From a bacterium (GTDB lineage Bacteria; Patescibacteriota; Minisyncoccia; JAUYLV01): a DNA stretch of 64,000 bases. The position numbers and the translations under genes were made by a program. The notes under the pieces are model-generated. The model was not told the origin of the DNA, did not search any database, and saw nothing but the letters and a program-made list of their open reading frames with translations. Of the stretch, positions 26,931-54,946 are shown piece after piece (positions within the stretch are counted from its first letter, which is position 1; the number at the start of each line of letters is the position of its first letter). The stretch covers positions 6,824 through 70,823 of the forward strand of contig JAUSGO010000004.1 of NCBI GenBank assembly GCA_030649025.1, in the 5' to 3' direction.

Positions 26931-26932
26931 CC

Positions 26933-40321: not shown

Positions 40322-40357
40322 ATTTTAATATACAGAATCCATAAGACCGGAGGCTTA

Positions 40358-40385: not shown

Positions 40386-40476
40386 TAGATAGTAATTGTG
40401 AGGTATTTATAAATATTGGCATATTTTAGGCAAAAACAGTAAACAAATAACAAAAAGCAAATAACAAGATCATCCC

Positions 40477-40504
40477 GCTATTTGCTATCTGCTATTTGCT
40501 ATTT
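40477..40504 (+). repeat. 4x heptamer tandem repeat (GCTATTT/GCTATCT/GCTATTT/GCTATTT) 12 nt upstream of the tuf ATG
   Basis: Direct reading. Related array TGCTATT/TGCCATC/TGCTGTT/TGCTATC before rplO. Confidence 0.8.
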
Positions 40505-40516
40505 ACTGAAATCGTT

Positions 40517-41710
40517 ATGGCTGAAAAATTCGATCGTTCAAAGCCCCATGTTAACGTTGGCACCATTGGCCATGTTGACCATGGGAAAACCACTCTTACC
40601 GCCGCGATTCTTCACGTTCTCAACATGAAGGGATTTGTGAAAAAAGTTGAGGGAGTGAATGACATCGACAATGCTCCCGAAGAGCGCGCCCGCGGTATTA
40701 CCATTGCACTGCATCACTCCGAATATGAATCCGAAAAACGCCACTACGCTCACATTGACGCACCGGGACACGCAGATTATATCAAAAACATGATAACCGG
40801 GGCCGCTCAAATGGACGGCGCAACGTTGGTCGTTGCGGCAACCGACGGTCCTATGCCGCAAACACGAGAACACATTCTGCTTGCGCGTCAGGTCGGCGTG
40901 CCGTCACTGGTGGTATTTCTTAATAAAGTGGACATGGTCGAGGACCCCGAGCTCATTGATCTTGTGGAGGCGGAAGTTCGTGAACTTCTTACAAAGTATC
41001 AATTTCCTGGCGACAAAACCCCGATTATTCGTGGTTCCGCGCTCAAGGCCCTTGAAGCAAAGTCCGTTGACGATCCGGCGGCAAAACCAATCTTGGATCT
41101 TATCGCGGCTCTGGACGCCTTTGTGCCGGATCCGGTGCGCGATATCGAAAAGCCGTTTTTGATGCCCGTTGAGGACATCTTCTCTATTGAGGGCCGGGGC
41201 ACCGTTGTAACTGGCAGGATTGAGCGCGGGAAGGTCAAGTTGAATGATGAAATTGAGATCATCGGGCTCCGTCCGACCTCAAAAACCGTGGTTACGGGCA
41301 TTGAAATGTTCAACAAATCCCTTGATGAAGGCATGGCCGGTGATAATGCGGGCATTTTATTGCGCGGCACGAAAAAAGAAGAAATAGAGCGCGGGCAGGT
41401 TTTGGCAAAGCCGGGTTCGGTCACGCCGCATACCGAGTTTGACGCAGAAGTATACGTGCTTTCGAAAGAAGAGGGAGGCCGTCACACCCCGTTCTTTAAG
41501 GGCTACAAACCGCAGTTTTACATTCGCACCACCGACGTTACGGGAGAGGTATTTTTGCCGGAAGGGACGGAGATGGTCATGCCGGGAGACACCGTTAACA
41601 TCAAGGTGGCGCTTATGTACCCGGTCGCACTTGAAGAAAAACAACGGTTTGCTATTCGAGAAGGCGGAAAAACGGTGGGCGCGGGTGTCGTGACGAAGAT
41701 TAACAAATAA
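40517..41710 (+). CDS. tuf: elongation factor Tu
   Basis: [31 protein letters not shown]; start at the internal ATG of the track ORF. Confidence 0.97.
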
Positions 41711-41781
41711 AAAACGATATTTTTTGAGTACACGATTAAGAAAAACAAGGCAGTTAAGTTGGTTTTGTAGTTCTTTGCAAC

Positions 41782-42147
41782 ATGGGCACCGCTCAAACAA
41801 AAATAAAGAATGACGATACGATGAAAGCCGAGGAAGAGCAAAAGTCTCGCCTACGCATACGTATTCGGGCCTATGACAACAAGATCATCGACCAATGCGC
41901 AAAGCAGATCATGGAGACCGCAGAGCGCGTGGGCGCGGAAGTTTCCGGACCGGTTCCTCTGCCTACCGAAATCCGTAAATACACGGTAAACCGGGCAACT
42001 TTCAAATACAAAGACGCAAGGGAACAGTACGAAATGCGGGCCCACAAGCGCCTGATTGACATCTTGAATCCGAATCCCAAGGTCATTGACGCGCTCACCA
42101 ATCTGAATTTGCCAGCCGGCGTTGATATCGAGATAAAAATGACTTAA
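41782..42147 (+). CDS. rpsJ: 30S ribosomal protein S10
   Basis: [38 protein letters not shown]. The start may be the internal MKAEEE at 41821. Confidence 0.9.
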
Positions 42148-42327
42148 GGGGGATTTGAATGCGCAGCAGCGACGGAGAATATACGAAAAATAACGAATAG
42201 TTTTTAGCGGGCAATGTTCGGTGGACAAACTCTAATGAGGAAGTCCGGTTCACAACCTATTTAATGTTCTAAAGACTCGTCTTGCGGGAATTGTTTACCG
42301 GGCGATGTCCGGTTTTTTTTATTGCTT

Positions 42328-42930
42328 ATGAAATGTTTACTTGCTCAGAAACTTGGCATGTCGCAGATCTATACGGACGCTGGCATCGTTATGCCCGTCA
42401 CCGTTGTTTCTGTTGCGCCGAATACGGTCATACGGGTCCGTTCAAACGATGCACGCGGCTATGATGCGGTGCAAGTTGGCGCGGGATCCAGAAAAAAACT
42501 CACAAAACCGATGGCCGGGCAATTTAAAGAACTCGGAAAATTTAAATGGGTGAAGGAATTCAGAACAAGGGCAGGAGATCTGAAGCGTGGCGACATTATA
42601 GGTATTTCGGTATTTACCGAGGGAGACGTAGTGGATGTTACCTCGACGAGCAAGGGGAAGGGGTTTGCGGGCGTGGTGAAGCGGCATCATTTTCGCGGAG
42701 GACCGGCGTCGCACGGCCATCCACACAATCACCGCGCTCCGGGATCCATCGGATGCCGTTTTCCGCAACATGTGCACAAAGGAAAGCGCATGGCGGGTCA
42801 CATGGGCTTTGAAACCGTGACGGTAAAAAATCTAAAAGTGGTGCGGATCAATGAGGAACAGGGTCTTATGGCTATAAAGGGAGCGATACCGGGAAGCAGG
42901 GGGACGCTGGTGAAGATCATGGGAAGATGA
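42328..42930 (+). CDS. rplC: 50S ribosomal protein L3
   Basis: MKCLLAQKLGMSQIY...GKGFAGVVKRHHFRGGPASHG. Confidence 0.93.
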   Translation: MKCLLAQKLGMSQIYTDAGIVMPVTVVSVAPNTVIRVRSNDARGYDAVQVGAGSRKKLTKPMAGQFKELGKFKWVKEFRTRAGDLKRGDIIGISVFTEGDVVDVTSTSKGKGFAGVVKRHHFRGGPASHGHPHNHRAPGSIGCRFPQHVHKGKRMAGHMGFETVTVKNLKVVRINEEQGLMAIKGAIPGSRGTLVKIMGR

Positions 42931-42987
42931 ATTATGCTTAATTACGGATTACGCATTACGAATTAATTCGCAATACGCAATTCGCAA

Positions 42988-43632
42988 TTGAGTGATTCAG
43001 CAATGCAGGCAAAACTCTACAACCAAGACGGAAAAGAAGCCGGGACAACCGAATTGCCCGATGCGATATTTAATGTTCCGCAAAACTCCGCACTGGTAAA
43101 GCAGGTTGTCGAGGTGGAGCGGGCTAATAGACGAAAACCCCTTGCCCACACCAAGGTACGCAGCGAGGTGCGCGGCGGAGGCAAAAAACCGTGGAAGCAG
43201 AAGGGCACGGGAAGGGCGCGTCATGGCTCAATTCGTTCGCCGCTGTGGAAGGGAGGCGGAACAACTTTCGGGCCGCGGAACGAGACAGTTTTTAAAAAGC
43301 ACATCAATAAAAAAATGAGACGAAAGGCTCTTTTTATTGTACTTTCGGCAAAAGTAAAGGACGGGGAATGCGTTTTTATTGATCGGATACAGCTCAACGA
43401 GTCCAAGACAAAGGCGTTTTCTAAAATCATAAAAAATTTTAAAGAAACATTGGGCAGGTCGCTTGCATTTGTAAGTTCGGGTGATGCCGTGCTTGAACGG
43501 GCCGCGCGCAATATTGAAAAACTTTCCGTATACCAAGCCTCTCAGCTCAATGCGCTCGATTTGTTACAAAAGAAGTTTCTCTTTATACCGAAGTCAGCAA
43601 TCGAAGTTATTGAAAAAACTTTTTTGAAATAA
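42988..43632 (+). CDS. rplD: 50S ribosomal protein L4
   Basis: ...RGGGKKPWKQKGTGRARHGSIRSPLWKGGG. Confidence 0.93.
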   Translation: MSDSAMQAKLYNQDGKEAGTTELPDAIFNVPQNSALVKQVVEVERANRRKPLAHTKVRSEVRGGGKKPWKQKGTGRARHGSIRSPLWKGGGTTFGPRNETVFKKHINKKMRRKALFIVLSAKVKDGECVFIDRIQLNESKTKAFSKIIKNFKETLGRSLAFVSSGDAVLERAARNIEKLSVYQASQLNALDLLQKKFLFIPKSAIEVIEKTFLK

Positions 43633-43636
43633 TCCC

Positions 43637-44053
43637 ATGTCCATCGTACAAACTTTAAAAAAGAAAATTGTTCGCAAGGAAACCGGGAAAGAAGAAGCTC
43701 CTTCCTCCGCTTCCGCGACCCCGGGCCATATGAACGAAGCGGATCGGATAGGAGAGTCCGTCCAAGAAAAGAAGGGGCAAGCCACGGCCGTTTTAAGAAA
43801 GCCGCGTGTCACGGAAAAAACTGCGGAGCTTGGCATCGAGCGCATCTATACGTTCGACGTAGATCCTAAGGCTTCAAAACATGAAGTGCGCCTGGCAGTG
43901 GAAAAAATGTACGGCGTCAATGCCGTAAGCGTGCGCACCATTACCGTGCATCGCAAAAAACGGACGCGTGGGAAACTTGAGGGATGGAAGAAGGGATATA
44001 AAAAGGCACTGGTGAAAATAAAAGAAGGACAAACAATAGAGATTTCAAGCTGA
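43637..44053 (+). CDS. rplW: 50S ribosomal protein L23 with an N-terminal extension
   Basis: VLRKPRVTEKTAELGIERIYTFDVDPKASKHEVRLAVEKMYGV. Confidence 0.9.
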   Translation: MSIVQTLKKKIVRKETGKEEAPSSASATPGHMNEADRIGESVQEKKGQATAVLRKPRVTEKTAELGIERIYTFDVDPKASKHEVRLAVEKMYGVNAVSVRTITVHRKKRTRGKLEGWKKGYKKALVKIKEGQTIEISS

Positions 44054-44092
44054 TTAGCTTATTAGCTTCTTAGGGAATTCAAAAAAAAGTCC

Positions 44093-44124
44093 TAAAAAGC
44101 TAAAAAGCTAAAAAGCTAAAAAGC
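44093..44124 (+). repeat. 4x octamer tandem repeat TAAAAAGC ending 1 nt before the rplB GTG start
   Basis: Direct reading: cc-taaaaagc x4 - t - GTG. Confidence 0.85.
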
Positions 44125-44125
44125 T

Positions 44126-44956
44126 GTGAAGTATTTCAAACCAATAACGCCAGGACAACGGCAAAAAACCACAGTAGACTACAGCGCTCTGACGCCGCGG
44201 ACAAAGCCCGAAAAATCTTTGCTCGCGCCCTACGCAAAAAAAAGCGGGCATGGAGCTCTTGGCCGCATTACGGTCCGCCATAGAGGCGGGGGGCACAAGC
44301 GTAGGTACCGGATTATCGATTTCAAAGGCGATAAATTTGACGTGCCGGCCACAATTTCTTCAATAGAATACGATCCGAATCGCTCGGCCTTTATCGCATT
44401 GCTTTCATATAAAGACGGAGAGAAGCGGTATATTCTTGCGCCAAAAGATGTCGGAGTGGGAAACGTCGTACTCGCCTCTAAGAATCGCTTGCCGGCAGAA
44501 CCGGGCAACCGCATGCCGTTGAAGTTTCTACCCGTAGGGACCTTTGTGCATAACGTGGAGCTGTTTCCTGGGCGTGGCGGGGCGGCAGTGCGTTCGGCCG
44601 GCTCATATGCGGAAGTGCTTGCACAAGAAGGACGATTCACGAATCTTAAGCTTCCCTCAATCGAAGTACGAAAATTTTTTTCCGAGTGCCTTGCGACCAT
44701 AGGACAGCTTTCTAACTCCGAACATAATTTGGAAAATCTTGGCAAGGCCGGGCGTGCACGATGGAAAGGAATCCGTCCCCAGGTGCGAGGGAGCGCGATG
44801 AATCCGGTTGATCATCCGCATGGCGGAGGCGAGGGCAGGCAGCCCATCGGGCTTCCCGGTCCGAAGACCCCCTGGGGGAAACCGGCGCTTGGCGTGAGAA
44901 CAAGAGACAGAAAAAAACAAAGTTCAAAGTATATTGTGTCGAGAAGAAGGAAATAA
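44126..44956 (+). CDS. rplB: 50S ribosomal protein L2
   Basis: GTG start VKYFKPITPGQRQ; GHKRRYR; HPHGGGEG. Confidence 0.95.
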   Translation: MKYFKPITPGQRQKTTVDYSALTPRTKPEKSLLAPYAKKSGHGALGRITVRHRGGGHKRRYRIIDFKGDKFDVPATISSIEYDPNRSAFIALLSYKDGEKRYILAPKDVGVGNVVLASKNRLPAEPGNRMPLKFLPVGTFVHNVELFPGRGGAAVRSAGSYAEVLAQEGRFTNLKLPSIEVRKFFSECLATIGQLSNSEHNLENLGKAGRARWKGIRPQVRGSAMNPVDHPHGGGEGRQPIGLPGPKTPWGKPALGVRTRDRKKQSSKYIVSRRRK

Positions 44957-44964
44957 ATTATTCA

Positions 44965-44987
44965 GTTAACGCATTTGCGCGTTAACG
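44965..44987. promoter_or_regulatory. 23-nt hairpin motif GTTAACGCATTTGCGCGTTAACG (8-bp inverted repeat GTTAACGC/GCGTTAAC) preceding the 4x octamer array before rpsS
   Basis: A near-identical motif GTTAACGAATTTGCGAGTTAACG occurs at 54041-54063 before map. Confidence 0.6.
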
Positions 44988-45000
44988 GGTTCCGTAAAAA

Positions 45001-45032
45001 CTCGTTAACTCGTTAACTCGTTAACTCGTTAA
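45001..45032 (+). repeat. 4x octamer tandem repeat CTCGTTAA ending 2 nt before the rpsS GTG start
   Basis: Direct reading. Confidence 0.85.
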
Positions 45033-45034
45033 CG

Positions 45035-45376
45035 GTGTCACGAAGTCTTAAAAAGGGCCCGTATATTGAACCAAAATTGCTTAAAAAACTAGGCAGGGTT
45101 CGTATTGGCGACAAGGTAGTGATAAAGACGTGGTCGCGCGCCTCCACAATCTCCCCCGAGATGGTCGGCTTTACCATCGGCGTACATAACGGCAAGATTC
45201 ATATTCCGATATTCATTACCGAGGAGATGGTAGGTCATCGACTTGGCGAATTTTCTTCAACGCGCAAGTTTGTTCGTCACGGCGGACGCATGCAAAAAGA
45301 ACAAGAACTGAAAGCCAAGGAAGCCGAGCAGGAATCCGAAAAGGCAGCAAAAACAGCGGCCACAGAGAAGAAATAA
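45035..45376 (+). CDS. rpsS: 30S ribosomal protein S19 with a Lys/Glu/Ala-rich C-terminal tail
   Basis: GTG start [18 protein letters not shown]... Confidence 0.93.
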
Positions 45377-45466
45377 AGATCAGCTTATAGGTTATAGCTG
45401 CTAACTTGTAGGGATGAAGAAAGAACGAGTTAAGCTCAAAAAGCTATAAGCTCTAAGTCATAAGGT

Positions 45467-46003
45467 ATGTCAGCGATTGTTGCAAAACTTAATCATTTTA
45501 GAATGAGTCCGCGCAAGGTTCGGCTGGTTGCGGATCTCGTGCGCGGCAAGGATGTGGACGATGCAGAGGCTCAACTGGAACATATGCGGAAGCACGCCGC
45601 CCTGGCAATAAAAAAACTGTTACGATCCGCCATTGCCAACGCTGAGCACAATTTTCAAAAAACTCGATCCGCACTTTTCATCCAGACGCTTACGGTAGAT
45701 GGCGGGCCGACGCTAAAACGTTTTCGCGCACGGGCATTCGGGAGAGCTGCGGACATCCATAAGCGGACAAGCCACATAACGCTTGTGCTTGGAGAACGTA
45801 GCGAGGCGCTAAGGAAGAAACGTTTTGTTCTGCCTGAAGCAAAAAAATCAAAAGAAGCGACAACTCTTGAAGATCTTAGTCAAGAGAAAAAGAAACCGGA
45901 AACAGGCTTCTCCCCAAAGGAACTACGGAAAGAACCGCGGGGCGGGATTCAAAAAAAAGTCGCCGACATGGGCAGAAAATTTTTTAGAAGAAAAAGTGTG
46001 TGA
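45467..46003 (+). CDS. rplV: 50S ribosomal protein L22 with a C-terminal extension
   Basis: MSAIVAKLNHFRMSPRKVRLVADLVRGKDVDDAEAQL. Confidence 0.93.
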   Translation: MSAIVAKLNHFRMSPRKVRLVADLVRGKDVDDAEAQLEHMRKHAALAIKKLLRSAIANAEHNFQKTRSALFIQTLTVDGGPTLKRFRARAFGRAADIHKRTSHITLVLGERSEALRKKRFVLPEAKKSKEATTLEDLSQEKKKPETGFSPKELRKEPRGGIQKKVADMGRKFFRRKSV

Positions 46004-46032
46004 CAAGTAAATCGGGCTGAAGCCACTCTTAT

Positions 46033-46686
46033 ATGGGACATAAAATTCATCCAATATCATTCCGTTTGGGATACATCGAACCGTGGCGATCGCGGTGGCT
46101 CAACCGAAACCGCAAAAGCTTTAGGGCGTCTTTGGAACAAGACGTGAAGATTCGTCGCTATTTGGAAAAAAAGTTTCGCGGGGCAGCGGTAGACGTAATT
46201 GAAATTGAGCGCACTCCGAACTTGGCCACGATCATCATTAAAACAGCGCGCCCCGGCATTGTCATAGGAAGGGGCGGAGGCGGAATTGAAGATTTGCAAA
46301 AACAGCTAGCCCACATCGTTGGAGTAGAAGATAAAGGAAAAATAAAAGTTCAGGTCGAAGAGGTTAGAAGTGCCGAATCGTCTGCGCGCATTATGGCAGA
46401 GACCATCGCCGAGCAGCTTGAAAAGCGCATGCAGCATCGACGGATCATGAAACAAGCCATTGAAAAGATTATGGCAAACAAAAAGGAGGTGGAGGGGGTC
46501 AAAATCAGGCTCGCCGGACGCATCGGAGGAGCCGAGATCTCGCGTGCCGAATGGCTTGCAAAGGGGCGATTACCGCTGCACACTCTGCGTGCAAGAATTG
46601 ATTTTGCAACGAGCGAGGCTCACACCACCTATGGCGTTATCGGCGTGAAAGTATGGATATACAAAGGACAGGTATTTCAGAAATAG
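46033..46686 (+). CDS. rpsC: 30S ribosomal protein S3
   Basis: MGHKIHPISFRLGYIEPWRSRW; KH domain. Confidence 0.95.
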   Translation: MGHKIHPISFRLGYIEPWRSRWLNRNRKSFRASLEQDVKIRRYLEKKFRGAAVDVIEIERTPNLATIIIKTARPGIVIGRGGGGIEDLQKQLAHIVGVEDKGKIKVQVEEVRSAESSARIMAETIAEQLEKRMQHRRIMKQAIEKIMANKKEVEGVKIRLAGRIGGAEISRAEWLAKGRLPLHTLRARIDFATSEAHTTYGVIGVKVWIYKGQVFQK

Positions 46687-46745
46687 GTTATAGCTGATAG
46701 GTTTTAGCTTGTAGAGTTTTGAGGGATGCGCATACCCTCACTCGA

Positions 46746-46773
46746 AGCTATAAGCTATAAGCTATAAGCTATA
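46746..46773 (+). repeat. 4x heptamer tandem repeat AGCTATA ending 2 nt before the rplP ATG
   Basis: Direct reading: g-aagctata x4 - ac - ATG. Confidence 0.85.
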
Positions 46774-46775
46774 AC

Positions 46776-47180
46776 ATGTTATCTCCGAAGAAAGTAAAAC
46801 ATCGAAAATGGCAAAAGGGTCGCACGCGAGGAATCTCTTCGCGGGGAACCGTCTTGGCGTTTGGGGTATTTGGGCTTAAAGCGAATGGATCGAAATGGAT
46901 CACCGCGCGTCAAATAGAAGCGGCCCGTCGGGCAATGACGCGTTTTGTCCAGCGCGGGGGCAAGATATGGATTCGGGTGTTTCCGGATAAACCGGTTACA
47001 AAAAAGGGGACGGAGGTGCCCATGGGAGGCGGCAAGGGCGGCGTGGACCACTACGTTGTTCCCGTTCTTCCCGGAAGAATTCTTTTCGAAATTGATGGTG
47101 TTAGCGAGACGCTGGCCAGGGAAGCCATGCGGCTTGCGGCACACAAACTTCCGATACGCACGCTTTTCGTAAAAAAATGA
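46776..47180 (+). CDS. rplP: 50S ribosomal protein L16
   Basis: [19 protein letters not shown]. Confidence 0.95.
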
Positions 47181-47211
47181 TTGATCTCTATTTAGGATTT
47201 AAAGTAAGCCC

Positions 47212-47523
47212 ATGAGCGACAAACACACCAAAAAACACAAAATATTCCGCGGCGTTGTGGTTTCGGATAAGATGCAAAAAACGATAGTGGTGCGAGTAGA
47301 CCGCATTAAGGAACATCCGAAATATGAACGCAGATATCGTGTATCGAAGAGATATAAAGCCCATGATGAAAAGGGGGAGTTTCGCACCGGAGATATCGTG
47401 CTTATTGAAGAGGTGCGCCCTTTGTCGCGAGACAAAAGGTGGCGTGCCGTGAAGAAAATAGGAGAAAATAGAACGGAAGTCCTCGAAGCAAATCCCAAAG
47501 ACGATCCGAGTAACTCTGAATAA
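47212..47523 (+). CDS. rpsQ: 30S ribosomal protein S17
   Basis: [33 protein letters not shown]; follows L16 directly with no L29 gene between. Confidence 0.93.
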
Positions 47524-47604
47524 CAAGACTTGTAGCCTCTTAACTTCTTAGCTTCTTGGGCGGATTCCTAAAAAGCTGAAAGTTAAAAGCTGGAAGTTGT
47601 TTGA

Positions 47605-47970: not shown

Positions 47971-47980
47971 TAATGCACGT

Positions 47981-48286
47981 ATGCGAATCAAAAAAGGAGA
48001 CACTATAAAAATGATTTCGGGAAAAGACCGGGGGAGAACGGGAAAGGTTTTACGTACCGATCCTCACAAGGAACGCGTTGCGATCGAAGGACTGAATATG
48101 ATAAAAAAACATCTCCGACCGCGCAAACAGGGAGAGAAGGGACAGATAGCGACCATACCGTCCCTGGTACACGTTTCAAAAGTGATTATTATTTGCTCGA
48201 AGTGCGGGAAAGAGACCCGCATCGGATACGGCGGAACAGAGGGAAGAAAGCACCGAATCTGTAAAAAATGCGGCAGCGAGATTTGA
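47981..48286 (+). CDS. rplX: 50S ribosomal protein L24, zinc-ribbon variant
   Basis: KOW N-terminus GKDRGRTGKVL. The C-terminus reads CSKCGKETRIGYGGTEGRKHRICKKCGSEI, i.e. CxxC...CxxC replacing the usual DPKTG...RIAKKSG. Confidence 0.9.
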   Translation: MRIKKGDTIKMISGKDRGRTGKVLRTDPHKERVAIEGLNMIKKHLRPRKQGEKGQIATIPSLVHVSKVIIICSKCGKETRIGYGGTEGRKHRICKKCGSEI

Positions 48287-48359
48287 TAGGGGGCCGATGG
48301 CCTATAAGAACAAGAAAACAAGCAAAAATCTTTTTCTATAAGCTCTATACCATAAGTCC

Positions 48360-48917
48360 ATGATGTCATTATTCGAAAAATATAAAAAACAAGTTGTGCC
48401 GGCGATGCAAGAAAAGCTCGGTCTGAGAAACGCTTTGGCGCTTCCCGCCATTGAAAAAGTTACAGTGAATTCGGGAATAGGAAAATTTCTTAAAGATCCA
48501 AAAATCCTCGATGACATTGAACGAGATCTTACCCGCATTATTGGGCAAAAACCCATGCGCACAAAAACAAAAAAAGCCATAGCTTCATTCAAGACGAGAC
48601 AGGGCATGGAAATTGGTTTTAAGGCCACGCTCCGCGGACGACGCATGTGGGATTTTCTGGAGCGCCTTATCGGAATTGCGCTTCCCAGAACCCGAGATTT
48701 TCGAGGAATTCCGGATACCTCTTTTGACAAGGACGGCAATCTTTCCATCGGCATTCGGGAACATATCGTATTTCCGGAAACTTCAGGGGATGACGTGAAG
48801 ACTATTTTTGGCTTCCAGGCGGTTTTGACCACCAAGGTCCACAAAAAAGAGGATGGCGTCTTGCTGCTCAAATTGTTAGGATTTCCCATAACAAGCATTA
48901 AAAATACAAAATCCTAA
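48360..48917 (+). CDS. rplE: 50S ribosomal protein L5
   Basis: LPAIEKVTVNSGIGKF... Confidence 0.93.
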   Translation: MMSLFEKYKKQVVPAMQEKLGLRNALALPAIEKVTVNSGIGKFLKDPKILDDIERDLTRIIGQKPMRTKTKKAIASFKTRQGMEIGFKATLRGRRMWDFLERLIGIALPRTRDFRGIPDTSFDKDGNLSIGIREHIVFPETSGDDVKTIFGFQAVLTTKVHKKEDGVLLLKLLGFPITSIKNTKS

Positions 48918-48964
48918 ATATTCGGAATATAACCACCCGCATTCGTTAGTTTTAATTTGAGGGT

Positions 48965-49150
48965 ATGGCAAAAAAATCCCAAATTGCACGAGCAAAAAAG
49001 AAACCGAAGTTCTCTACGCGAATCGTGCGCAGATGTTTCCGTTGCGGACGGCGGCGGGGATATTTGAGGGATTTTAACTTGTGCAGAATCTGTTTCAGGG
49101 AGCTGGCGCGCAAAGGCGAGGTTCCGGGTATACGGAAATCTTCCTGGTAG
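48965..49150 (+). CDS. rpsN: 30S ribosomal protein S14 type Z (zinc-binding)
   Basis: 61 aa with CFRCG...CRIC. Confidence 0.93.
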
Positions 49151-49229
49151 CCGGTGAGAACAATCTAATTATTTTCTTCTTTCAATTCCGTTTTCATCAG
49201 TTCATAAGGAGACTCTAACATTTATTTTT

Positions 49230-49616
49230 ATGGACCCCATCGCAGATCTACTGACGTGCATTCGAAATGCAAATGCAGTAGGAAATCCCGTAGCAGTTAT
49301 TCCGTTTTCAAAATTATCGTTCGCCATCGCGGAAGTTTTGGCGCACAAGAAATGGATTGACGGCGTGACAAAGCCGGGGAAGAAGGCAAAAAAGACCCTC
49401 GAGATTGCGCTCAAATATTCCGGCAAGACTCCCGCCATAACCGGTGTTCGCAGAATTTCCAAGCTCGGAAAACGCGTATATAAAGGATGGAAAACGCTAC
49501 GTCCAGTACGCCAAGGATATGGGATGGCGCTTATTTCAACTCCACAGGGACTTCTTACCGACACGGAGGCAAGAAAATTAAAAGTAGGAGGAGAGGTATT
49601 ATTAGAAATCTGGTAA
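49230..49616 (+). CDS. rpsH: 30S ribosomal protein S8
   Basis: MDPIADLLTCIRNANAVGN. Confidence 0.95.
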   Translation: MDPIADLLTCIRNANAVGNPVAVIPFSKLSFAIAEVLAHKKWIDGVTKPGKKAKKTLEIALKYSGKTPAITGVRRISKLGKRVYKGWKTLRPVRQGYGMALISTPQGLLTDTEARKLKVGGEVLLEIW

Positions 49617-49860
49617 GGGCTTTGTCTGCGTTTCGGAGCGCCTTTGTCGCGAACGAAACGCAGGAACAAAACCTTACCCCCTCACTCATCCCGGCAAGAC
49701 ATTCTCGATGTATGTAGCTGGAAAGGCGAAGCCGCCTTCGGCTCTCGGCCCTATATATCGAAAAGCTCTCGTAAGGATGAGTGAGGGGGTGCTCACTGTT
49801 GTAGCTAAAAATCATTCGCTCAACATTGGGTCTCGCTCATAATTTTTAGACAACATTGGC
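49617..49860 (+). other. 244-nt structured spacer between rpsH and rplF, with a 15-bp perfect inverted repeat (49677-49691 / 49775-49789) and additional hairpins; candidate cis-regulatory RNA or ncRNA
   Basis: CCCCCTCACTCATCC ... GGATGAGTGAGGGGG enclosing 83 nt. A 10-bp hairpin CTGCGTTTCG/CGAAACGCAG lies just after the rpsH stop. CAACATTGG is repeated twice before the rplF ATG. Confidence 0.45.
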
Positions 49861-50409
49861 ATGTCAAGAATCGGAAAACAACCCATTAAGATCCCCGCCG
49901 ACATTAACGTTGAAATTCTGGGCAACGTTGTTAAAGTTATGGGCTCCAAGGGAACGCTCAAACGCCTTTTGCATGACGAAATTCACGCCGAGTTTCGGGA
50001 TCACATGTTGTATGTTACGCCCAGCTTCCAGACAAAACGCACTGCGGCGCTCTGGGGCTTGGAACGGGCACTTTTAGCCAATATTGTTCATGGTGTTGCG
50101 AATGGATATGAAAAGCGGTTAGAGCTGGAGGGGGTCGGATATCGCGTGCAATTGGTCAACGATAAAGAGCTTGCGCTTGCGCTCGGCTTTTCTCATCCCG
50201 TGACGGTTATTGCGCCGGAAGGCATTACCTTTAAGACAGAAAAAAATGTCATTATCGTCTCCGGGATAGATAAGGCGCTTGTGGGGCAAGTTGCCGCAAA
50301 CATTCGAGCAAAGAAACCCCCAGAACCCTATAAGGGCAAGGGCATACATTATATGGGAGAAGTTATTAGGAGAAAGGCCGGCAAAAAAGCCACTGCGGCA
50401 GCTAAATAA
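49861..50409 (+). CDS. rplF: 50S ribosomal protein L6
   Basis: MSRIGKQPIKIPADINVEI. Confidence 0.95.
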   Translation: MSRIGKQPIKIPADINVEILGNVVKVMGSKGTLKRLLHDEIHAEFRDHMLYVTPSFQTKRTAALWGLERALLANIVHGVANGYEKRLELEGVGYRVQLVNDKELALALGFSHPVTVIAPEGITFKTEKNVIIVSGIDKALVGQVAANIRAKKPPEPYKGKGIHYMGEVIRRKAGKKATAAAK

Positions 50410-50494
50410 AGCCTTTAGCCGATTAGCCCACTAGTTTCCTAGGAATAATAACCTAGTTGATCTAATAGGCTCATAGGCTAGTAAGCTAAACACC

Positions 50495-50872
50495 TTGAGG
50501 AAGAATCGTGCAAAACACAATATACTCATGCGTACGCGCAGGCATGGGCGCATTCGCGGCAAAATACAGGGGACCGCGGATCGGCCAAGGCTCTCCGTGT
50601 TCCGTTCCGCAAAACATCTCGCCCTTCAACTTATAGATGATGAGGCTCAAAGAACGATTGTTGGGATTACCGACGAGAAGAAAACTAAAAAAATAAACAA
50701 GGGCTCTGGGGCGGCAAAAGTTGAAAAGGCGAGGGCGGCCGGCAAAGTGCTGGCGGAAAAGGCTTTGGCAAAGGGGATTAAAAAAGTGGTATTTGATAGA
50801 GGCGGTTATGCGTATCATGGAAGGGTTCGGGCGGTTGCGGAGGGCGCAAGAGAAGGAGGACTTCAGTTTTGA
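50495..50872 (+). CDS. rplR: 50S ribosomal protein L18
   Basis: L18 consensus; 125 aa. Confidence 0.93.
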
Positions 50873-50995
50873 AAATCAAAAGTCAAAAATCAAAAGTCAA
50901 AAATCAAAATTAAGGAGCGAAAGTTTCTCTTGCAAGAAAAACTTTCACGATATTCCCAAGTTTTGCATTTTGAGTTTTGCATTTTGAATTTGTAA
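50869..50995. repeat. ~125-nt intergenic repeat element, copy B (between rplR and rpsE)
   Basis: About 85% identical to 26822-26930; starts at the rplR stop and ends at the rpsE ATG. Confidence 0.85.
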
Positions 50996-50996
50996 A

Positions 50997-51488
50997 ATGG
51001 CCAGACAACAACATCGGCAAGAAAAACAAAAAGGCGAGTTTGAACAAAAAACACTCGAAGTCAGCCGCGTGACACGCGTCGTTGAAGGCGGAAAGCGTTT
51101 TTCTTTTCGCGCTGCGCTGGTTATCGGCGATCTCAGGGGGCGCGTAGCTTTGGGTGTCGCAAAGGGCGCCGACGTCTCGCTTGCCATTGAGAAGGCGGCA
51201 TTCCGCGCGAAGAAAGATCTTTTTTCCGTTCCGCTCACGAAGGAGGGGTCTATTTCTCATGAGGTGCGTGCGAAATACGGCAGCGCCAAGGTCTTGTTAA
51301 AGCCGGCGGCAGAGGGCCGCGGTATTGTGGCTGGTGGCGCCATGCGCACGGTATGCGCGCTTTCGGGAATTCGACATGTAACCGGGAAAATACTTAATTC
51401 TACAAACAAGATAAACATTGCGCGGGCCACCATTGCGGCGCTCAGACAACTTAGACCGTCAAAAGAGCAAACAACAAAAAACAAATAA
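50997..51488 (+). CDS. rpsE: 30S ribosomal protein S5
   Basis: ...VTRVVEGGKRFSFRAALVIGDLRGRVALGVAKGADV. Confidence 0.95.
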   Translation: MARQQHRQEKQKGEFEQKTLEVSRVTRVVEGGKRFSFRAALVIGDLRGRVALGVAKGADVSLAIEKAAFRAKKDLFSVPLTKEGSISHEVRAKYGSAKVLLKPAAEGRGIVAGGAMRTVCALSGIRHVTGKILNSTNKINIARATIAALRQLRPSKEQTTKNK

Positions 51489-51503
51489 CAGGCTTCAGCC
51501 GCT

Positions 51504-51531
51504 TGCTATTTGCCATCTGCTGTTTGCTATC
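51504..51531 (+). repeat. 4x heptamer tandem array TGCTATT/TGCCATC/TGCTGTT/TGCTATC ending 5 nt (CGTTA) before the rplO ATG
   Basis: Direct reading; same family as the array before tuf. There is no L30 gene between rpsE and rplO. Confidence 0.8.
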
Positions 51532-51536
51532 CGTTA

Positions 51537-51971
51537 ATGCAGCTGCATAATCTTTCGGGAAAGAAAAACAAAAAAAAGCGAGTTGGTCGCGGCGGGAAAC
51601 GCGGTACATATTCGGGTCGTGGCGGCAAGGGGCAGACCGCGCGAGCGGGGCATCGGATACGGCCGGCAATTCGAGATTATCTCAAGCAGATTCCCAAGCG
51701 TCGCGGGCGGCACAAACATGGTTTTATAAGCGTTCAACGCAAGCCGGCAATAGTGTCCCTTAGAGATATCGAGAAGGTTTTCACGGTCGGCGAAACGGTG
51801 AGTCCAAAGACTCTTACGCAAAAGAGCCTGGTATTTCCTTTTGGTTCGATAATGCCGAAAGTCAAAATTCTTGACGGAGGAAAGCTTGGCAAAAGCCTTG
51901 TTGTGCGAGGTTGTGCGGTGTCGGCAAGCGCAAGAAAGGCCATAGAGGCAGTTGGCGGCAAAGTTCTCTAG
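51537..51971 (+). CDS. rplO: 50S ribosomal protein L15
   Basis: MQLHNLSGKKNKKKRVGRGGKRG; internal Met of the track ORF. Confidence 0.93.
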   Translation: MQLHNLSGKKNKKKRVGRGGKRGTYSGRGGKGQTARAGHRIRPAIRDYLKQIPKRRGRHKHGFISVQRKPAIVSLRDIEKVFTVGETVSPKTLTQKSLVFPFGSIMPKVKILDGGKLGKSLVVRGCAVSASARKAIEAVGGKVL

Positions 51972-52021
51972 TATTAAGAATTTGTATGTTAAAATAGGCT
52001 GGCATATCAGCGACCGCTCTC

Positions 52022-53293
52022 ATGGAAAAGATTCTTCAACTTTTTAGAGCAAAAGATCTGCGCGACAAACTGCTATACATCGCGGCGCTTCTTACGGTAT
52101 TCCGGATTGCTTCGGCGATTCCCGTTCCCGGAGTTGACATAGCCCGCCTTAAGCGTTTTTTCGAGGATAATCAGGTTTTTGGGCTTTTCAATTTATTTTC
52201 TGGGGGCGCGCTTTCAAACTTTTCATTGGTCATGCTTGGGGTCGGTCCGTATATTACCGCCTCCATCATTATGCAGCTCCTTACCATGATTTTTCCGAAA
52301 CTGAAAGAAATGTATCAGGAAGGAGGAGAAATGGGGCGTCAAAAATTTAATCAGTATTCCCGCCTGCTTACGGTTCCCCTTGCGGTCTTGCAGGCTTACG
52401 GCACCATCACACTTCTGCAGAATCAGCAGGTGGTGGTCCCACTCCAGCCGCTCACGCTTGTTACCACGATATGCACCATAGCAGCCGGAAGCCTTCTTTT
52501 GATGTGGCTTGGCGAGCTTATTTCGGAAAAGGGCATGGGGAACGGCGTCTCTCTTATTATTTTTGCGGGCATCGTGGCGGGCATTCCCTCGTCAATTCAA
52601 CAAACGCTTCTTTCGGGGAATGCGGGTTCAAACATTCCCCTCTATGTTGTTCTTGCGGTCGTTACCGTAGTGGTTATTGCGGCGGTTGCGTTTATAACCG
52701 AAGCGGAACGGCTCATACCCGTTACCTATGCAAAACGAGTGCGGGGCATGAAAATGTTCGGCGGCGCCTCTACATACTTGCCGCTACGCATAAACCAGGC
52801 CGGTGTCATACCCATTATTTTCGCGCTTTCCATTATGCTGTTCCCCGGCATGATCGCAAGCTTTTTTTCGCAATCTTCTGTTCCCTGGATCGCAAGCGTC
52901 GCACACTTTATGGCGGGGCTTTTCACCGATCAGAAGATATACGGAATAGTTTATTTTCTGCTTATTATACTCTTCACATATTTCTATACCGCAGTGACGT
53001 TCGAACCCCACCAGATAGCAGAGAATGTGCAGAAACAGGGGGGGTTCATTCCCGGCATCCGCCCGGGGAAGCCAACAGCGGATTATTTTGCGTATATCAT
53101 CAACCGCGTCACGCTTGCCGGAGCGGTGTTTTTGGGTATTATTGCGATTCTACCCTTTATACTACAGGCCGCAACCGGGCTTTCCGCGCTCACCATAGGC
53201 GGCACCGCAGTGCTTATCGTGGTCTCCGTGGTTTTGGAGAGCATGAAGGCGGTGAAAGCACAGCTTACGATGCGGCAATACGAGTCATTCTAA
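52022..53293 (+). CDS. secY: preprotein translocase subunit SecY
   Basis: 10-TM SecY; 423 aa. Confidence 0.95.
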   Translation: MEKILQLFRAKDLRDKLLYIAALLTVFRIASAIPVPGVDIARLKRFFEDNQVFGLFNLFSGGALSNFSLVMLGVGPYITASIIMQLLTMIFPKLKEMYQEGGEMGRQKFNQYSRLLTVPLAVLQAYGTITLLQNQQVVVPLQPLTLVTTICTIAAGSLLLMWLGELISEKGMGNGVSLIIFAGIVAGIPSSIQQTLLSGNAGSNIPLYVVLAVVTVVVIAAVAFITEAERLIPVTYAKRVRGMKMFGGASTYLPLRINQAGVIPIIFALSIMLFPGMIASFFSQSSVPWIASVAHFMAGLFTDQKIYGIVYFLLIILFTYFYTAVTFEPHQIAENVQKQGGFIPGIRPGKPTADYFAYIINRVTLAGAVFLGIIAILPFILQAATGLSALTIGGTAVLIVVSVVLESMKAVKAQLTMRQYESF

Positions 53294-53377
53294 AGGCTTA
53301 TAGCTTTTGGCCCATAGCTCATAGGTTTCATGCGGCTACCACGATTCTTCCTGTCGGCTATTAATCATTAGTTATCG

Positions 53378-54037
53378 GTGATCAGTTTGGATATGCCGTT
53401 AACCGTTATTTTTCTCGGGAAGGCCGGAGCGGGCAAAGGAACCCAGGGGCACCTGCTCGAGCAAAAAATTAAGATGAAAGTCGTCGGCACCGGAGACCTA
53501 CTCCGAGCGTTTACGGCTCTTGATATACCTGCGGCGCGGCGTATTGAAAAAGAGGTCTTGCTTGCGGGCAAACTTGCGCCTTCATGGTTTGTGAGCTACT
53601 TATGGATGCACGAGGTGCTTCATGCCGAACCCAAAGAAAGCATTCTTTTTGACGGCAGTCCGCGCATGCTCCCTGAGGCGCTCCTTATAGACGATGTGCT
53701 TGATTGGAATGGCCGCATACCCCCCAAAGTCTTTCTATTGGACATTAGCGACGAAGAGGCAACGCGGCGGCTGCTTTCGCGAAAAATGTGCGAAATGTGT
53801 AAAAAGATCTATCAGGGAGATTCTGCCGAGGTTGTATCTGGGGTGTGTCCGTGCGGTGGAAAACTTGTAAAACGTCGTGATGATGTTCCGAAGGCCATCC
53901 AGAGCCGCCTGGCGTATTTCAAGACGGATGTTGTGCCGGTGATTGAACATTATCAAAAAAAAGAATGGCTCATCCGTATCAATGGCGAACAGTCGCCAGA
54001 GAAGGTGCACGAAGACATTCTTAAGCATCTTGGTTAG
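53378..54037 (+). CDS. adk: adenylate kinase with a zinc-binding lid
   Basis: P-loop GKAGAGKGTQ; lid CEMCKK...CPCGG. Confidence 0.93.
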   Translation: MISLDMPLTVIFLGKAGAGKGTQGHLLEQKIKMKVVGTGDLLRAFTALDIPAARRIEKEVLLAGKLAPSWFVSYLWMHEVLHAEPKESILFDGSPRMLPEALLIDDVLDWNGRIPPKVFLLDISDEEATRRLLSRKMCEMCKKIYQGDSAEVVSGVCPCGGKLVKRRDDVPKAIQSRLAYFKTDVVPVIEHYQKKEWLIRINGEQSPEKVHEDILKHLG

Positions 54038-54040
54038 TCG

Positions 54041-54063
54041 GTTAACGAATTTGCGAGTTAACG
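54041..54063. promoter_or_regulatory. second copy of the 23-nt GTTAACG hairpin motif (GTTAACGAATTTGCGAGTTAACG), preceding the 4x octamer array before map
   Basis: 21/23 identity to 44965-44987. Confidence 0.6.
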
Positions 54064-54072
54064 CGTTATTTT

Positions 54073-54104
54073 AACCCGTCAACCCGTCAACCCGTCAACC
54101 CGTT
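54073..54104 (+). repeat. 4x octamer tandem repeat AACCCGTC (last unit AACCCGTT) ending 5 nt before the map GTG start
   Basis: Direct reading. Same octamer family AAC(T/C)CGT(T/C) as the array before rpsS. Confidence 0.85.
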
Positions 54105-54109
54105 AATGG

Positions 54110-54871
54110 GTGTTTCAGCCCAAATCTCCACAGGAAATAGCGATAATGGCACGCGGCGGAGCGATACTCGCAAAAACATTCCGAAGGCTACGGCACGCGG
54201 CATATACGGGAATCACCACAAAAGAACTTGACGAGCTTGCGCGCAAGCTCGTTTTGTCATACGGCGCAAAGCCCGCGTTTCTCGGCTACGCATCGGGCGC
54301 TTCAGGTAAGAAATTCCCAGCATCTCTCTGCGTCTCGGTTGGCGATGAAGTTGTGCATGGTATTCCCGGAACTCGCTTCTTGAAAGATGGTGATATCGCG
54401 GGACTTGATCTGGGCGTACTGTACAATGGTTTTTATACGGATTCTGCGATTACGATAGGCATTGGCGCCATTTCAAAGAAAGCCCAGCGACTCATTGAGG
54501 TAACGGAGCGGGCGTTATATCTTGGCATTGACATGGCCCGCCTTGGCAATACTACTGGAGATATTGGGCAGGCGGTGCAGTCCTATGTGGAGGCACAGGG
54601 ATTTTCCGTTGTGCGGGATCTTGTGGGGCATGGCATAGGGAGGGAGCTTCACGAAGAACCTCAAGTCCCGAATTATGGGAAAGTGGACCGCGGTATAAAA
54701 CTTGAAGAAGGCATGGTGGTCGCCATTGAACCCATGGTGACCGAGGGCAGTTGGCAGGTTGTGCTTTCTCCGGACGGCTGGACGTATAAAACCGCGGACG
54801 GCTCTCTCTCGGCGCATTTTGAACACACCGTAGCAATCACCAAAAAAGGCCCGAGAATTCTTACGAAGTAA
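54110..54871 (+). CDS. map: methionine aminopeptidase type I
   Basis: GTG start; SPQEIAIMARGGAILAK; metal ligands D..D..H..E..E. Confidence 0.93.
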   Translation: MFQPKSPQEIAIMARGGAILAKTFRRLRHAAYTGITTKELDELARKLVLSYGAKPAFLGYASGASGKKFPASLCVSVGDEVVHGIPGTRFLKDGDIAGLDLGVLYNGFYTDSAITIGIGAISKKAQRLIEVTERALYLGIDMARLGNTTGDIGQAVQSYVEAQGFSVVRDLVGHGIGRELHEEPQVPNYGKVDRGIKLEEGMVVAIEPMVTEGSWQVVLSPDGWTYKTADGSLSAHFEHTVAITKKGPRILTK

Positions 54872-54946
54872 TCCCTCGTCAAGTGCGAGGGATTTTTGTA
54901 TAATAAATAAACACCCTACGATTTAGACATTAAATATTCTCTGCCT

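Follow-up and report, generated by a model that had tools for sequence, protein, structure and literature searches.

Tandem arrays abutting start codons in the tuf-S10-spc cluster of a Patescibacteria genome: probable arms of small hairpin elements rather than a Shine-Dalgarno substitute

Among the short tandem repeats described in bacteria, the nearest published observation to the one discussed here is that of direct repeats of the heptamer TAACTGA found in marine Beggiatoaceae, some cyanobacteria and Bacteroidetes, for which a translational role has been proposed, without test (MacGregor, 2015; PMC4679880). In these genomes, two to six tandem heptamers end a few nucleotides before start codons, Shine-Dalgarno (SD) sequences are mostly absent, and several of the repeats are located in ribosomal protein (r-protein) operons (PMC4679880). 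The same kind of placement, near starts (at a median of 7 nt in 79 array-bearing spacers) and in SD-poor spacers (0 of 28 cluster genes with an SD), is found for the arrays of 7-8 nt units in the tuf-S10-spc cluster of a bacterium of the candidate phyla radiation (CPR, or Patescibacteria), which we analyzed within a 64,000-nt stretch of contig JAUSGO010000004.1 (assembly GCA_030649025.1, positions 6,824 to 70,823), hereafter the window. An initial annotation of this DNA suggested that the arrays replace the SD in a systematic alternative architecture of translation initiation or regulation. Could they be something else altogether? We consider it reasonably probable that the arrays are not an SD substitute but the arms of small hairpin elements, which duplicate and come to lie in gaps of CPR genomes that are transcribed and non-coding. 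This reading draws on the paired-arm anatomy of the elements, their paralogy within the window, their presence, absence and replacement by other families in relatives, the copies found within rRNA genes and within T-box leaders, an SD loss that does not depend on the elements, and the strand symmetry of the palindromes.

Whereas the TAACTGA repeats consist of one heptamer genome-wide, with essentially no inverted partner (169 direct sets compared to 1 indirect set; PMC4679880), the present elements employ many unrelated 7-8 nt units, include a complementary 5' array, form whole-element paralogues and have copies in rRNA genes and T-box leaders. The unit TAACTGA itself is seen in none of the 37 Tandem Repeats Finder rows of the window. 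A different comparison is with REP, REPIN and BIME sequences and with MITEs, such as Correia, RUP and ERIC, which are small, non-coding, imperfect palindromes that are present in multiple copies, occupy gaps in co-transcribed operons and vary in presence. The elements described here are likewise small, palindromic, intergenic, multi-copy and variable between relatives, and in the manner of REP and REPIN sequences they are short imperfect extragenic palindromes in many copies, with folding z-scores of -2 to -7, paralogues within the window and at least 120 metagenome stretches carrying one family. They depart from the REP and MITE sequences (for reviews see PMC3184786 and PMC2229807) in that the arms are tandem 7-8 nt units with periodic mismatches, a single genome holds several unrelated families, and rRNA genes contain copies as well. 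As for the conserved GTAG head that adjoins a GC-rich stem in REP sequences, (G/T)TAGC recurs in the family that we denote TAGCTT/AAGCTA; the other families are without it, and the stems are AT-rich tandem arrays. The arms are inverted, as in MITEs, but no target-site duplication was seen, whether at the boundaries of the paralogue pairs or where the window and its relative L082 diverge at breakpoints; REP-type elements leave no such duplication. Cyanobacterial STRRs, which are intergenic and lineage-specific tandem heptanucleotides, comprise a few fixed heptamers and, to our knowledge, are not organized as stop-to-start hairpins.

Two further systems share individual features with the elements. 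Like rRNA intervening sequences, the elements are sporadic, extra hairpin-forming sequences at the tips of rRNA helices (in relatives, not in the window), but the family in question is located mostly between protein-coding genes. The rRNA genes of CPR bacteria are rich in insertions, and the survey that reports this treats introns and open reading frames (ORFs) for homing endonucleases, with no mention of hairpin, tandem or palindromic insertions (PMC11270868). Within the hmw 5' untranslated region (UTR) in Haemophilus influenzae, transcribed (ATCTTTC)n heptamers form a hairpin arm upstream of the start, and this hairpin acts on expression by way of RNase III; this, however, is a single phase-variable virulence locus with at least 10 repeats that pair with a non-repetitive G-rich arm (PMC12721329), in contrast to the elements seen here, where either arm has approximately 4 units and the housekeeping loci concerned number dozens. 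TIGR or CRISPR-like arrays were rejected as candidates given that the present units are contiguous and identical, without variable spacers (compare PMC12045711). Full-text literature searching found no published description of such elements in CPR bacteria, and this insertion-element family of the CPR apparently has not been described so far.

The six arrays that had been reported, before tuf, rplB, rpsS, rplP, rplO and map, were all recovered where the initial annotation placed them, with Tandem Repeats Finder and by a check of the sequence (Table 1), and the start codons of the respective genes are fixed by canonical N-termini (e.g., SRSLKKGP in rpsS). The distance from array to start, given previously as 1-11 nt, is 0-13 nt, a close but somewhat wider range; the degenerate periodicity ascribed to additional spacers is visible before rplD, rplN and rplV, and weak before rplE and adk. 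Further arrays, beyond those listed at the outset, begin at 42940, 42965, 44048, 47533, 47571, 50872, 50961 and 55806, as well as at 26822 and 26893 before nusA. With a period of 7-8 and at least 3 copies, there are 12 arrays in 10 of the 23 cluster spacers, compared to a mean of 0.04 and a maximum of 1 in 200 dinucleotide-preserving shuffles, which upholds the claim that the arrays are not random. All 16 arrays of this kind in the window lie in spacers, the sole overlap with coding sequence being 51468-51490, in the last rpsE codons.

Inspection of all cluster spacers shows that the reported arrays are 3' arms and that the element-bearing spacers also contain a complementary 5' array. Nearly every cluster spacer of 50-125 nt conforms to a common plan, namely the upstream stop codon, a 5' array, a center, the complementary 3' array, 0-13 nt and the start codon. 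The 5' array is usually more degenerate than its partner and often displays TAG every 7-8 nt directly after the upstream stop; the center is short and, in some spacers, holds a GC-rich hairpin of its own. Partner arrays were detected by Tandem Repeats Finder at 40442/40477, 42940/42965, 44048/44092, 47533/47571, 50872/50961 and 26822/26893. The non-coding elements are about 55-125 nt in size, with 3-6 tandem units of 7-8 nt in each arm, and RNAfold predicts long imperfect stop-to-start hairpins (z-scores of -2 to -7 against dinucleotide shuffles) with stems of 20-40 bp that are mismatched once per unit, the stop and start codons being 0-9 nt away from the two sides of the helix base. In the rpsC>rplP spacer (we denote spacers by the upstream and downstream genes), five TAGs follow one another at an exact period of 7 nt (46684, 46691, 46698, 46705 and 46712), the first being the rpsC stop codon itself, and the predicted fold, with a minimum free energy of -40.1 kcal/mol (z -6.8), pairs the nucleotide after this stop with the nucleotide before the ATG. 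The first TAG of an element is also the stop codon of rplO in L082. Two general explanations of the units were considered and dropped. A trap with stop codons in all frames would be compatible with the periodic TAG of the TAGC-type families but not with the AAAATCA, AATTACG and GTTAACG families. Arrays of short palindromic restriction or methylation sites are suggested by the AGCT, GTTAAC, TGCA or CATG in many units, but some families (TTCCACA) contain none; by our estimate, about one third of random heptamer arrays would hold a palindrome of 4-6 nt.

The elements belong to the transcripts of the adjacent genes. A sigma-70-type promoter is located upstream of tuf, so that the tuf element lies within the 5' UTR, and strong terminator-like hairpins flank the unit that extends from tuf to map; given this promoter and these hairpins, the elements would be co-transcribed with the genes, and the cluster as a whole seems to form a single transcription unit. 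Terminator-like signals are strongest at 40300-40322, 42297-42313 and 54870-54894; all other hits are weak, and shuffled sequences yield no fewer of them. On the coding strand, the terminator scan reported no array hairpin, and the elements have no T-tails; the only hits at elements are two minus-strand hairpins, in the center of the tuf leader element and in the inner hairpin of the rplR>rpsE element. Intrinsic terminators or attenuators were therefore rejected as an identity of the elements, and terminators or promoters inside them are likewise unsupported by the scan. A search of the spacers against Rfam yielded no covariance-model match at the gathering score, only sub-threshold hits to miRNA precursors.

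Within the window, the elements form pairs of paralogues in which the flanks are unrelated in every case. The nusA leader element and the rplR>rpsE element are about 90% identical over 105 nt, including the non-repetitive inner hairpin (z = 31), and the other pairs are rplB>rpsS with adk>map (z = 23), the tuf leader with rpsE>rplO (z = 17.7), rpsS>rplV with rpsC>rplP (z = 15.8), and rplW>rplB with rpsQ>rplN (z = 12). Near-identical copies within a single contig were also found in L018, L028, L093 and L137. These observations bear on another explanation, that the arrays are neutral simple-sequence expansions that arose in situ, through slippage of 7-8 nt units combined with template switching in poorly repaired AT-rich spacers, with neither mobility nor function. 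The arrays are indeed long simple-sequence repeats (tandem units of 5-11 nt, sensu Mrazek), that is, head-to-tail copies longer than expected by chance, and heptamers are the commonest unit of such repeats in bacteria (Mrazek 2007, as cited in PMC4679880). Moreover, the perfect or near-perfect arrays suggest youth, unit copy number differs between the L018 paralogues, the adk>map element has a perfect 3' array in the window and a degenerate one in L082, and the palindromy is strand-symmetric. In-situ expansion nevertheless seems to us quite unlikely because full-length paralogues, complete with non-repetitive loops and inner hairpins, reside at unlinked loci, one family retains the same unit and the same AGGA...TCCT across the metagenome stretches, copies interrupt otherwise conserved rRNA and T-box helices, and most other spacers of the window are element-free although equally AT-rich.

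How stable are the elements in evolution? The only contig found with an exact protein match, L081, is 100% identical to the window. The closest species representatives by the r-protein L6 (about 58% identity) are metagenome-assembled genomes (MAGs) of Parcubacteria-type Patescibacteria, and the SecY relatives at about 65% identity bear the names of Portnoy- or Azambacteria. In the L6-based sample (80 loci fetched, 82 sequences scanned), dense arrays with a period of 7 or 8 are present in the CPR MAGs L003, L018, L028 (Liptonbacteria), L017, L005, L006 and L015, and 49 of the 82 sequences have none. The architecture is the same in L003, L018, L028 and L017, with units unrelated to those of the window (e.g., AGGAATC/TTCCACA, GGGTATT/CTAAACC and ATAGAAT/ATTCTAA); in L017, the palindromic unit AAATATTT is found in six spacers. 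Measured over 79 array-bearing spacers, the median distance is 5 nt from the stop to the beginning of the first array and 7 nt from the end of the last array to the start; the periods are 7 (46 spacers), 8 (27), 9 (5) and 6 (1). The window contains the most expanded cluster, with 18 of 22 spacers of at least 40 nt and a median spacer length of 72 nt, compared to 3-10 nt in most CPR relatives. Dense arrays are present as well in L076, a MAG of this sample labelled Lentisphaerae, with the paired heptamers GGTTTCN and CTGAAAC just upstream of an ATG (3343-3400 and 13465-13493), so that either the phenomenon reaches beyond the CPR or the bin label is unreliable.

Comparison with the close relatives (SecY identity of 94% in L082, 82% in L083, 81% in L085 and L087, and 75% in L086) reveals turnover. 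At rplC>rplD, rplW>rplB, rpsS>rplV, rplV>rpsC and rpsC>rplP, the spacers of L085 are 1-9 nt long; in the window, rplV>rpsC is an array-free spacer of 29 nt, and the other four are elements of 57-90 nt. Even in L082, three spacers contain other element families than in the window, including rplR>rpsE and secY>adk (GTTAACG-type in the latter), and rplO>secY, which is without an element in the window, contains one. Alignments of the window with L082 show about 90% identity in the coding flanks, which breaks off at the coding boundaries. The sole spacer that is clearly orthologous between the two is adk>map, in which, judging from the sequences, one lineage has changed, with either homogenization of the array in the window or decay in L082. 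One family, (TTAGCTTC)n-AGGA..TCCT-(AAAAGCTA/CAAGCTA)n, occupies non-orthologous spacers in the window, L082, L083 and L087, and one and the same (TAAAAAGC)x4 array is found before rplB in the window and before rpsC in L083. The comparison of orthologous spacers, from which support for a conserved architecture might have come, turned out the opposite way: already at a SecY identity of 94%, the elements fail to be conserved.

The TAGCTT/AAGCTA family extends far beyond the r-protein cluster. When metagenome contigs were scanned for AGCTTCTTAG-N(2-32)-CTAAAAAGCT, there were matches in at least 120 stretches that share the form (TAGCTTnT)n-loop-(nAAGCTA)n, with the unit and the loop-flanking AGGA...TCCT in common, and 83 distinct copies were examined. 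The family is quasi-symmetric, its reverse complement having the same form, and copies adjoin ORF boundaries in both orientations. About 12-15 of the 83 copies are located in S10-spc clusters, a minority of the copies and yet roughly a 6-10-fold excess over the share of this cluster in the genome; the sampled downstream genes encode ClpB (twice), DnaJ, GroEL, SSB, PheT, HisS, an EF-type GTPase, ParA, MurG, glycosyltransferases, an ABC ATPase, PilN and others. Viral contigs gave a single match, at 7125-7168 of L208 (IMGVR_UViG_3300025520_000003), which may come from a CPR phage or may be a CPR contig that was classified wrongly, and a phage vector for the family was rejected on this count.

Five of the 83 copies are inserted at helices within rRNA genes as defined by Rfam, in the 23S genes of L114, L134 and L150 and in the 16S genes of L100 (around position 1170) and L145 (in V1). 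The 23S copies lie about 250-300 nt from the 5' end, at the same site in three independent contigs, which we take to be the helix-9 region, where intervening sequences excised by RNase III occur in alpha-proteobacteria. At least two copies are in T-box leaders, L103 (154-366) and L109 (8894-9184), which score 64 and 36 bits, respectively, below the Rfam gathering threshold of 93, apparently due to the insertion of the TAGCTT-family hairpin just upstream of the conserved T-box sequence GGTGGTACCGCG; the same flanks are found in L115, and the copy in L106 adjoins an apparent tRNA 3' end. Are the elements, then, RNA-processing cassettes, with hairpins that are RNase III substrates, serving as intervening sequences in rRNA and, in mRNA, as cleavage sites that separate cistrons, leave short leaders and change stability or initiation? 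Apart from the stems of 20-40 bp with periodic mismatches, this possibility gains from the location of the copies in 23S and 16S helices, where intervening sequences excised by RNase III are known in other bacteria (PMC11270868), and from the heptamer-arm hairpin in the H. influenzae 5' UTR, cleavage of which by RNase III raises expression (PMC12721329). It appears very unlikely all the same, considering that cleavage would abolish coupling between cistrons and that there is no strand bias (see below). Furthermore, GTG and TTG starts are enriched after the arrays, whereas leaderless or short-leader initiation normally prefers AUG.

The diversity of the units also weighs on the idea that the arrays are periodic binding sites for an oligomeric nucleic-acid-binding protein with a regulatory role in translation or transcription, such as S1, a cold-shock protein, a HutP- or TRAP-like protein or a DNA-binding protein. 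The regular spacing of 7-8 nt, the approximately 4 units per arm and the UAG at a period of 7-8 in many 5' arms are what one would look for in such sites, and S1, Csp and CsrA have been suggested for the TAACTGA repeats as well (PMC4679880). With unit sequences that are unrelated between the families of one genome, occurrence in both orientations, copies in rRNA helices and dispensability in close relatives, however, binding sites of this kind are exceedingly improbable.

We now turn to the SD itself. Scored against the generic anti-SD CCUCC (dG of -7 kcal/mol or below, 4-13 nt upstream), which may differ from this organism's own 16S end, no SD-like site was detected in any of the 28 genes from tuf to comF in the window, or in the 26 genes of L085 and the 23 genes of L083, which bears out the reported absence of SD in the cluster. 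The accessory genes for which classic SDs had been listed do possess AGGAGG or GGAGG, at 11189, 12390, 13573, 18052, 19436 and 63236-63241, and such strong sites are present at about 10-11 of the approximately 40 non-cluster genes of the window, these six included. The link between the missing SD and the arrays does not hold up, though. Genes of the window without either an SD or an array include rpsL, rpsG, fusA, lepA, dnaA, dnaN, the ABC operon, pgk and glyA, and L085 is SD-less despite its element-free spacers of 1-9 nt, with ATG at all 26 starts; thus, the loss of SD is independent of the arrays. Together with the copies in rRNA genes, in T-box leaders and next to genes for chaperones, tRNA synthetases, SSB and glycosyltransferases, these cases speak against the arrays as a replacement for the SD. 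What survives of the proposed alternative architecture is that the elements are systematic, shared within the lineage, enriched in tuf-S10-spc, tied to starts and linked to GTG and TTG; their role as a stand-in for the SD is unsupported.

The link to start codons is strong. In the close clade, GTG or TTG starts are found in 12 of the 22 genes that have an array no more than 45 nt upstream and in 12 of the 84 genes without one (Fisher p ~1e-4), in comparisons that are not phylogenetically independent and with start calling that favors ATG; over all loci, the proportion of non-ATG starts is 20% with arrays and 7% without. The observation that starts after arrays are often GTG is thereby amply supported. 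Switches of the start codon between orthologues recur: secY starts with GTG in L082, downstream of an element, and with ATG in the window, where there is no tandem-array element; rplB and rpsS have GTG after an element in the window and ATG, with no such element, in L083 and L085; and rpsC has GTG after an element in L083 and ATG, again with no element, in the window and L085. The effect is large despite the sampling caveats, and this shift to GTG and TTG suggests that the elements alter the initiation of downstream cistrons.

Might the elements be a dedicated device for SD-independent coupling, in which the hairpin masks the start until the 5' arm is opened by a ribosome that terminates at the base of the helix, which releases the 3' arm along with the start, the modules being selected and their spread amounting to recruitment? 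The immediate proximity of stop and start to the helix base, the double role of the element's first TAG, which also terminates rpsC in the window and rplO in L082, the enrichment of non-ATG starts after arrays, the 6-10-fold enrichment in S10-spc and the apparent single transcription unit all fit this scheme. Still, we deem it unlikely in view of the same SD-less genes with element-free spacers in L085, the copies at tuf and nusA, where there is no upstream ORF to couple, the copies inside rRNA genes and T-box leaders, and the indifference of the hairpins to strand. The latter is apparent in the mismatches of helices allowed only Watson-Crick pairs, where G.U (37) is about as frequent as A.C (32), along with many transversion mismatches, and in the folding energies, with sense RNA the more stable strand in 22 of the 44 oriented copies. 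Several hairpins of the window actually fold much better as antisense, such as those of tuf (-16 kcal/mol sense compared to -36 kcal/mol antisense) and adk>map (-17 compared to -35 kcal/mol). Selection of the hairpin specifically in sense RNA was accordingly rejected; the palindromy is a family-level, DNA-symmetric property.

Several observations weigh against the elements being duplicative insertions devoid of a selected function. The pronounced association with non-ATG starts could reflect such a function rather than tolerance, as could the enrichment at highly expressed loci (the r-protein cluster, rRNA, tuf, nusA and chaperones); the perfect (TAAAAAGC)x4 shared across species at different sites suggests constraint on the sequence and number of units. 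Arm covariation, on the other hand, is weak: arms pair only slightly better with their own partners than across copies (-13.0 compared to -11.7 kcal/mol, p = 0.03), which falls short of establishing selection on the hairpin of an individual copy. Duplex energy served as the measure here because alignments of tandem arms, for which more than one pairing register is possible, are ambiguous. With respect to mobility, no transposase or RAYT domain was found among the Pfam-scanned ORFs of the window, which is a part of the genome; the co-existence of several unrelated unit families is awkward for a single sequence-specific mobilizing enzyme; and mobility is deduced from paralogy and turnover in the sequences, a pattern that gene conversion between spacers could mimic.

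With these points taken into account, the hairpin-element interpretation can be put in mechanistic terms as follows. The elements would duplicate and turn over within Parcubacteria-like CPR genomes, landing in intercistronic spacers, in 5' leaders and in helices of rRNAs and of T-box leaders. Since the gaps from stop to start in the r-protein cluster are ancestrally 1-10 nt, an inserted element touches both the stop and the start, and the repeats therefore appear to abut starts. The RNA of the element would fold into a long hairpin with periodic mismatches, the base of which brings the upstream stop next to the downstream start, and this juxtaposition may keep termination-coupled initiation or reinitiation possible; alternatively, the hairpin may be an RNase III substrate, in the manner of an rRNA intervening sequence. 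Either coupling or cleavage would explain how insertions are tolerated in an essential operon, and in rRNA and T-box contexts the element may plausibly be tolerated because it merely extends an RNA helix. A more elaborate scenario, possible but in our judgment rather improbable, is that the elements are proliferating, modular intercistronic cassettes of the CPR that supply the stop codon through TAGs recurring periodically in all frames and bring stop and start into contact, so that SD-less initiation downstream would depend on the terminating ribosome or on RNase III, the starts would drift or be tuned to GTG and TTG, and the same hairpins would be tolerated in the helices of rRNAs and riboswitches.

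Table 1. Arrays, elements and transcription signals in the window (positions are those of the 64,000-nt stretch; z, folding z-score, sense/antisense where two values are given)
Feature	Position	Strand	Description
tuf array	40477-40504	+	period 7, 4.0 copies, 90% matches; ATG start 40517
rplB array	44092-44125	+	period 8, 4.2 copies, 100% matches; GTG start 44126
rpsS array	44999-45033	+	period 8, 4.4 copies, 100% matches; GTG start 45035
rplP array	46745-46774	+	period 7, 4.3 copies, 100% matches; ATG start 46776
rplO array	51503-51531	+	period 7, 4 copies, 71-85% matches; ATG start 51537
map array	54073-54103	+	period 8, 3.9 copies, 100% matches; GTG start 54110
nusA leader element (outside the cluster)	26818-26933	+	arrays 26822-26846 and 26893-26926, inner hairpin; array ends 7 nt before GTG
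tuf leader element	40442-40504	+	(AACAAAT)x3.7 at 40442-40467, loop TCATCCC, (GCTATTT)x4 at 40477-40504; z -2.3 sense, -7.2 antisense
rplC>rplD element	42931-42987	+	(AATTACG)x3.7, then (AATTCGC)x3.6; TTG start 42988; orthologous spacer in L085 1 nt
rplW>rplB element, TAGCTT/AAGCTA family	44054-44125	+	(TTAGCTTN)x3, loop, (TAAAAAGC)x4.2; z -4.5/-6.0; GTG 44126; orthologous spacer in L085 2 nt
rplB>rpsS element	44957-45034	+	5' part GTTAACGCATTTGCGCGTTAACG, (CTCGTTAA)x4.4 at 44999-45033; GTG start 45035
rpsS>rplV element, degenerate TATAGCT/AAGCTAT type	45377-45466	+	orthologous spacer in L085 9 nt
rpsC>rplP element	46684-46775	+	5 TAGs, inner GC-rich hairpin, (AAGCTAT)x4.3 at 46745-46774; ATG 46776
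rpsQ>rplN element, TAGCTT/AAGCTA family	47524-47604	+	arrays 47533-47557 and 47571-47598
rplF>rplR element	50410-50494	+	degenerate period-8 TAG series 5', CTA series 3'; z -2.6/-3.8; TTG start 50495
rplR>rpsE element	50873-50996	+	(AAAATCA/AAAGTCA)x5.4, inner hairpin about 50917-50948, (TTTTGCA/TTTTGAG)x4.4; z -4.6/-7.0
rpsE>rplO element	51468-51531	+	5' arm overlaps last rpsE codons; TGCTATT-type x4 at 51503-51531; ATG 51537
secY>adk element, degenerate TATAGCT type	53294-53377	+	GTG start 53378
adk>map element	54038-54109	+	5' part GGTTAACGAATTTGCGAGTTAACG, (AACCCGTC)x3.9 at 54073-54103; GTG start 54110
GT2>galT element	55760-55835	+	TTTTCAA.../...GAAAATT, array 55806-55832; z -3.2; TTG start 55836
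Sigma-70-type promoter of the tuf-S10-spc unit	40358-40385	+	TTGACA-16-TATAAT, 12 of 12 matches
Terminator-like hairpin	40300-40322		just upstream of the tuf promoter
Terminator-like hairpin with T-run, end of the tuf-to-map unit	54870-54894	+	after map

Some features of the window, which opens with dnaA-dnaN, are worth recording beside the elements. The GT2>galT element sits between two non-translation genes. The rpsG>fusA spacer (9985-10095, minus strand) holds TTAACGCGTTAACGGG ... CTCGTTAACGACATAACGAG, related to the GTTAACG/CTCGTTAA family to which the elements at rpsS and map belong, with no tandem array, and may be a decayed copy. A palindrome of a type distinct from the tandem-armed elements, GC-rich and nested, fills the 244-nt rpsH>rplF spacer (49617-49860), with near-perfect 17-nt arms TTACCCCCTCACTCATCC...GGATGAGTGAGGGGGTG and minimum free energies of -105 kcal/mol in the sense (z -7.3) and -120 kcal/mol in the antisense strand (z -11.5); it has no Rfam match, and the corresponding spacers in relatives are 96, 37 and 41 nt long. 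The 174-nt rpsJ>rplC spacer (42148-42321), also long in L085 (169 nt), ends in a GC-rich hairpin followed by T8 (42297-42313) right before the TTG start of rplC; this attenuator-like spacer, for which there is no Rfam match, could be an L4-type autoregulatory leader relocated downstream of rpsJ. With respect to gene content, rpmC (L29) is absent between rplP and rpsQ, where a 31-nt gap (47181-47211) precedes the ORF of S17 (47212-47523, 103 aa); L018 and L028 have a stretch of 200-240 nt at this position, apparently with an L29-like ORF. Between rpsE and rplO there is no L30, which is the usual situation in the CPR. Finally, a 12-nt coding repeat, CGCCGATGCCGC, is present in 6.8 copies at 25985-26066, inside a minus-strand ORF of 367 aa (25656-26759) with no Pfam match, the start of which may be the GTG at 26681, preceded by a strong AGGAGG site.

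The genomes of CPR bacteria are tiny and streamlined, and it is unexpected that the most conserved bacterial operon is padded in them with hairpin elements of 55-125 nt, and no less so that the same elements appear in rRNA genes and T-box leaders. The interest of the elements lies mainly in this breadth, across operons, rRNA genes and T-box leaders, and in the association with start codons. In practical terms, the elements will mislead gene-start prediction, rRNA-based taxonomy, primer design and operon annotation in metagenome-assembled CPR genomes. If they are mobile, they would represent a new kind of small bacterial repeat element, one with arms made of tandem units; and if they affect initiation, as the GTG and TTG starts hint, they would offer a natural system for studying SD-less initiation and coupling of cistrons in uncultivated bacteria.

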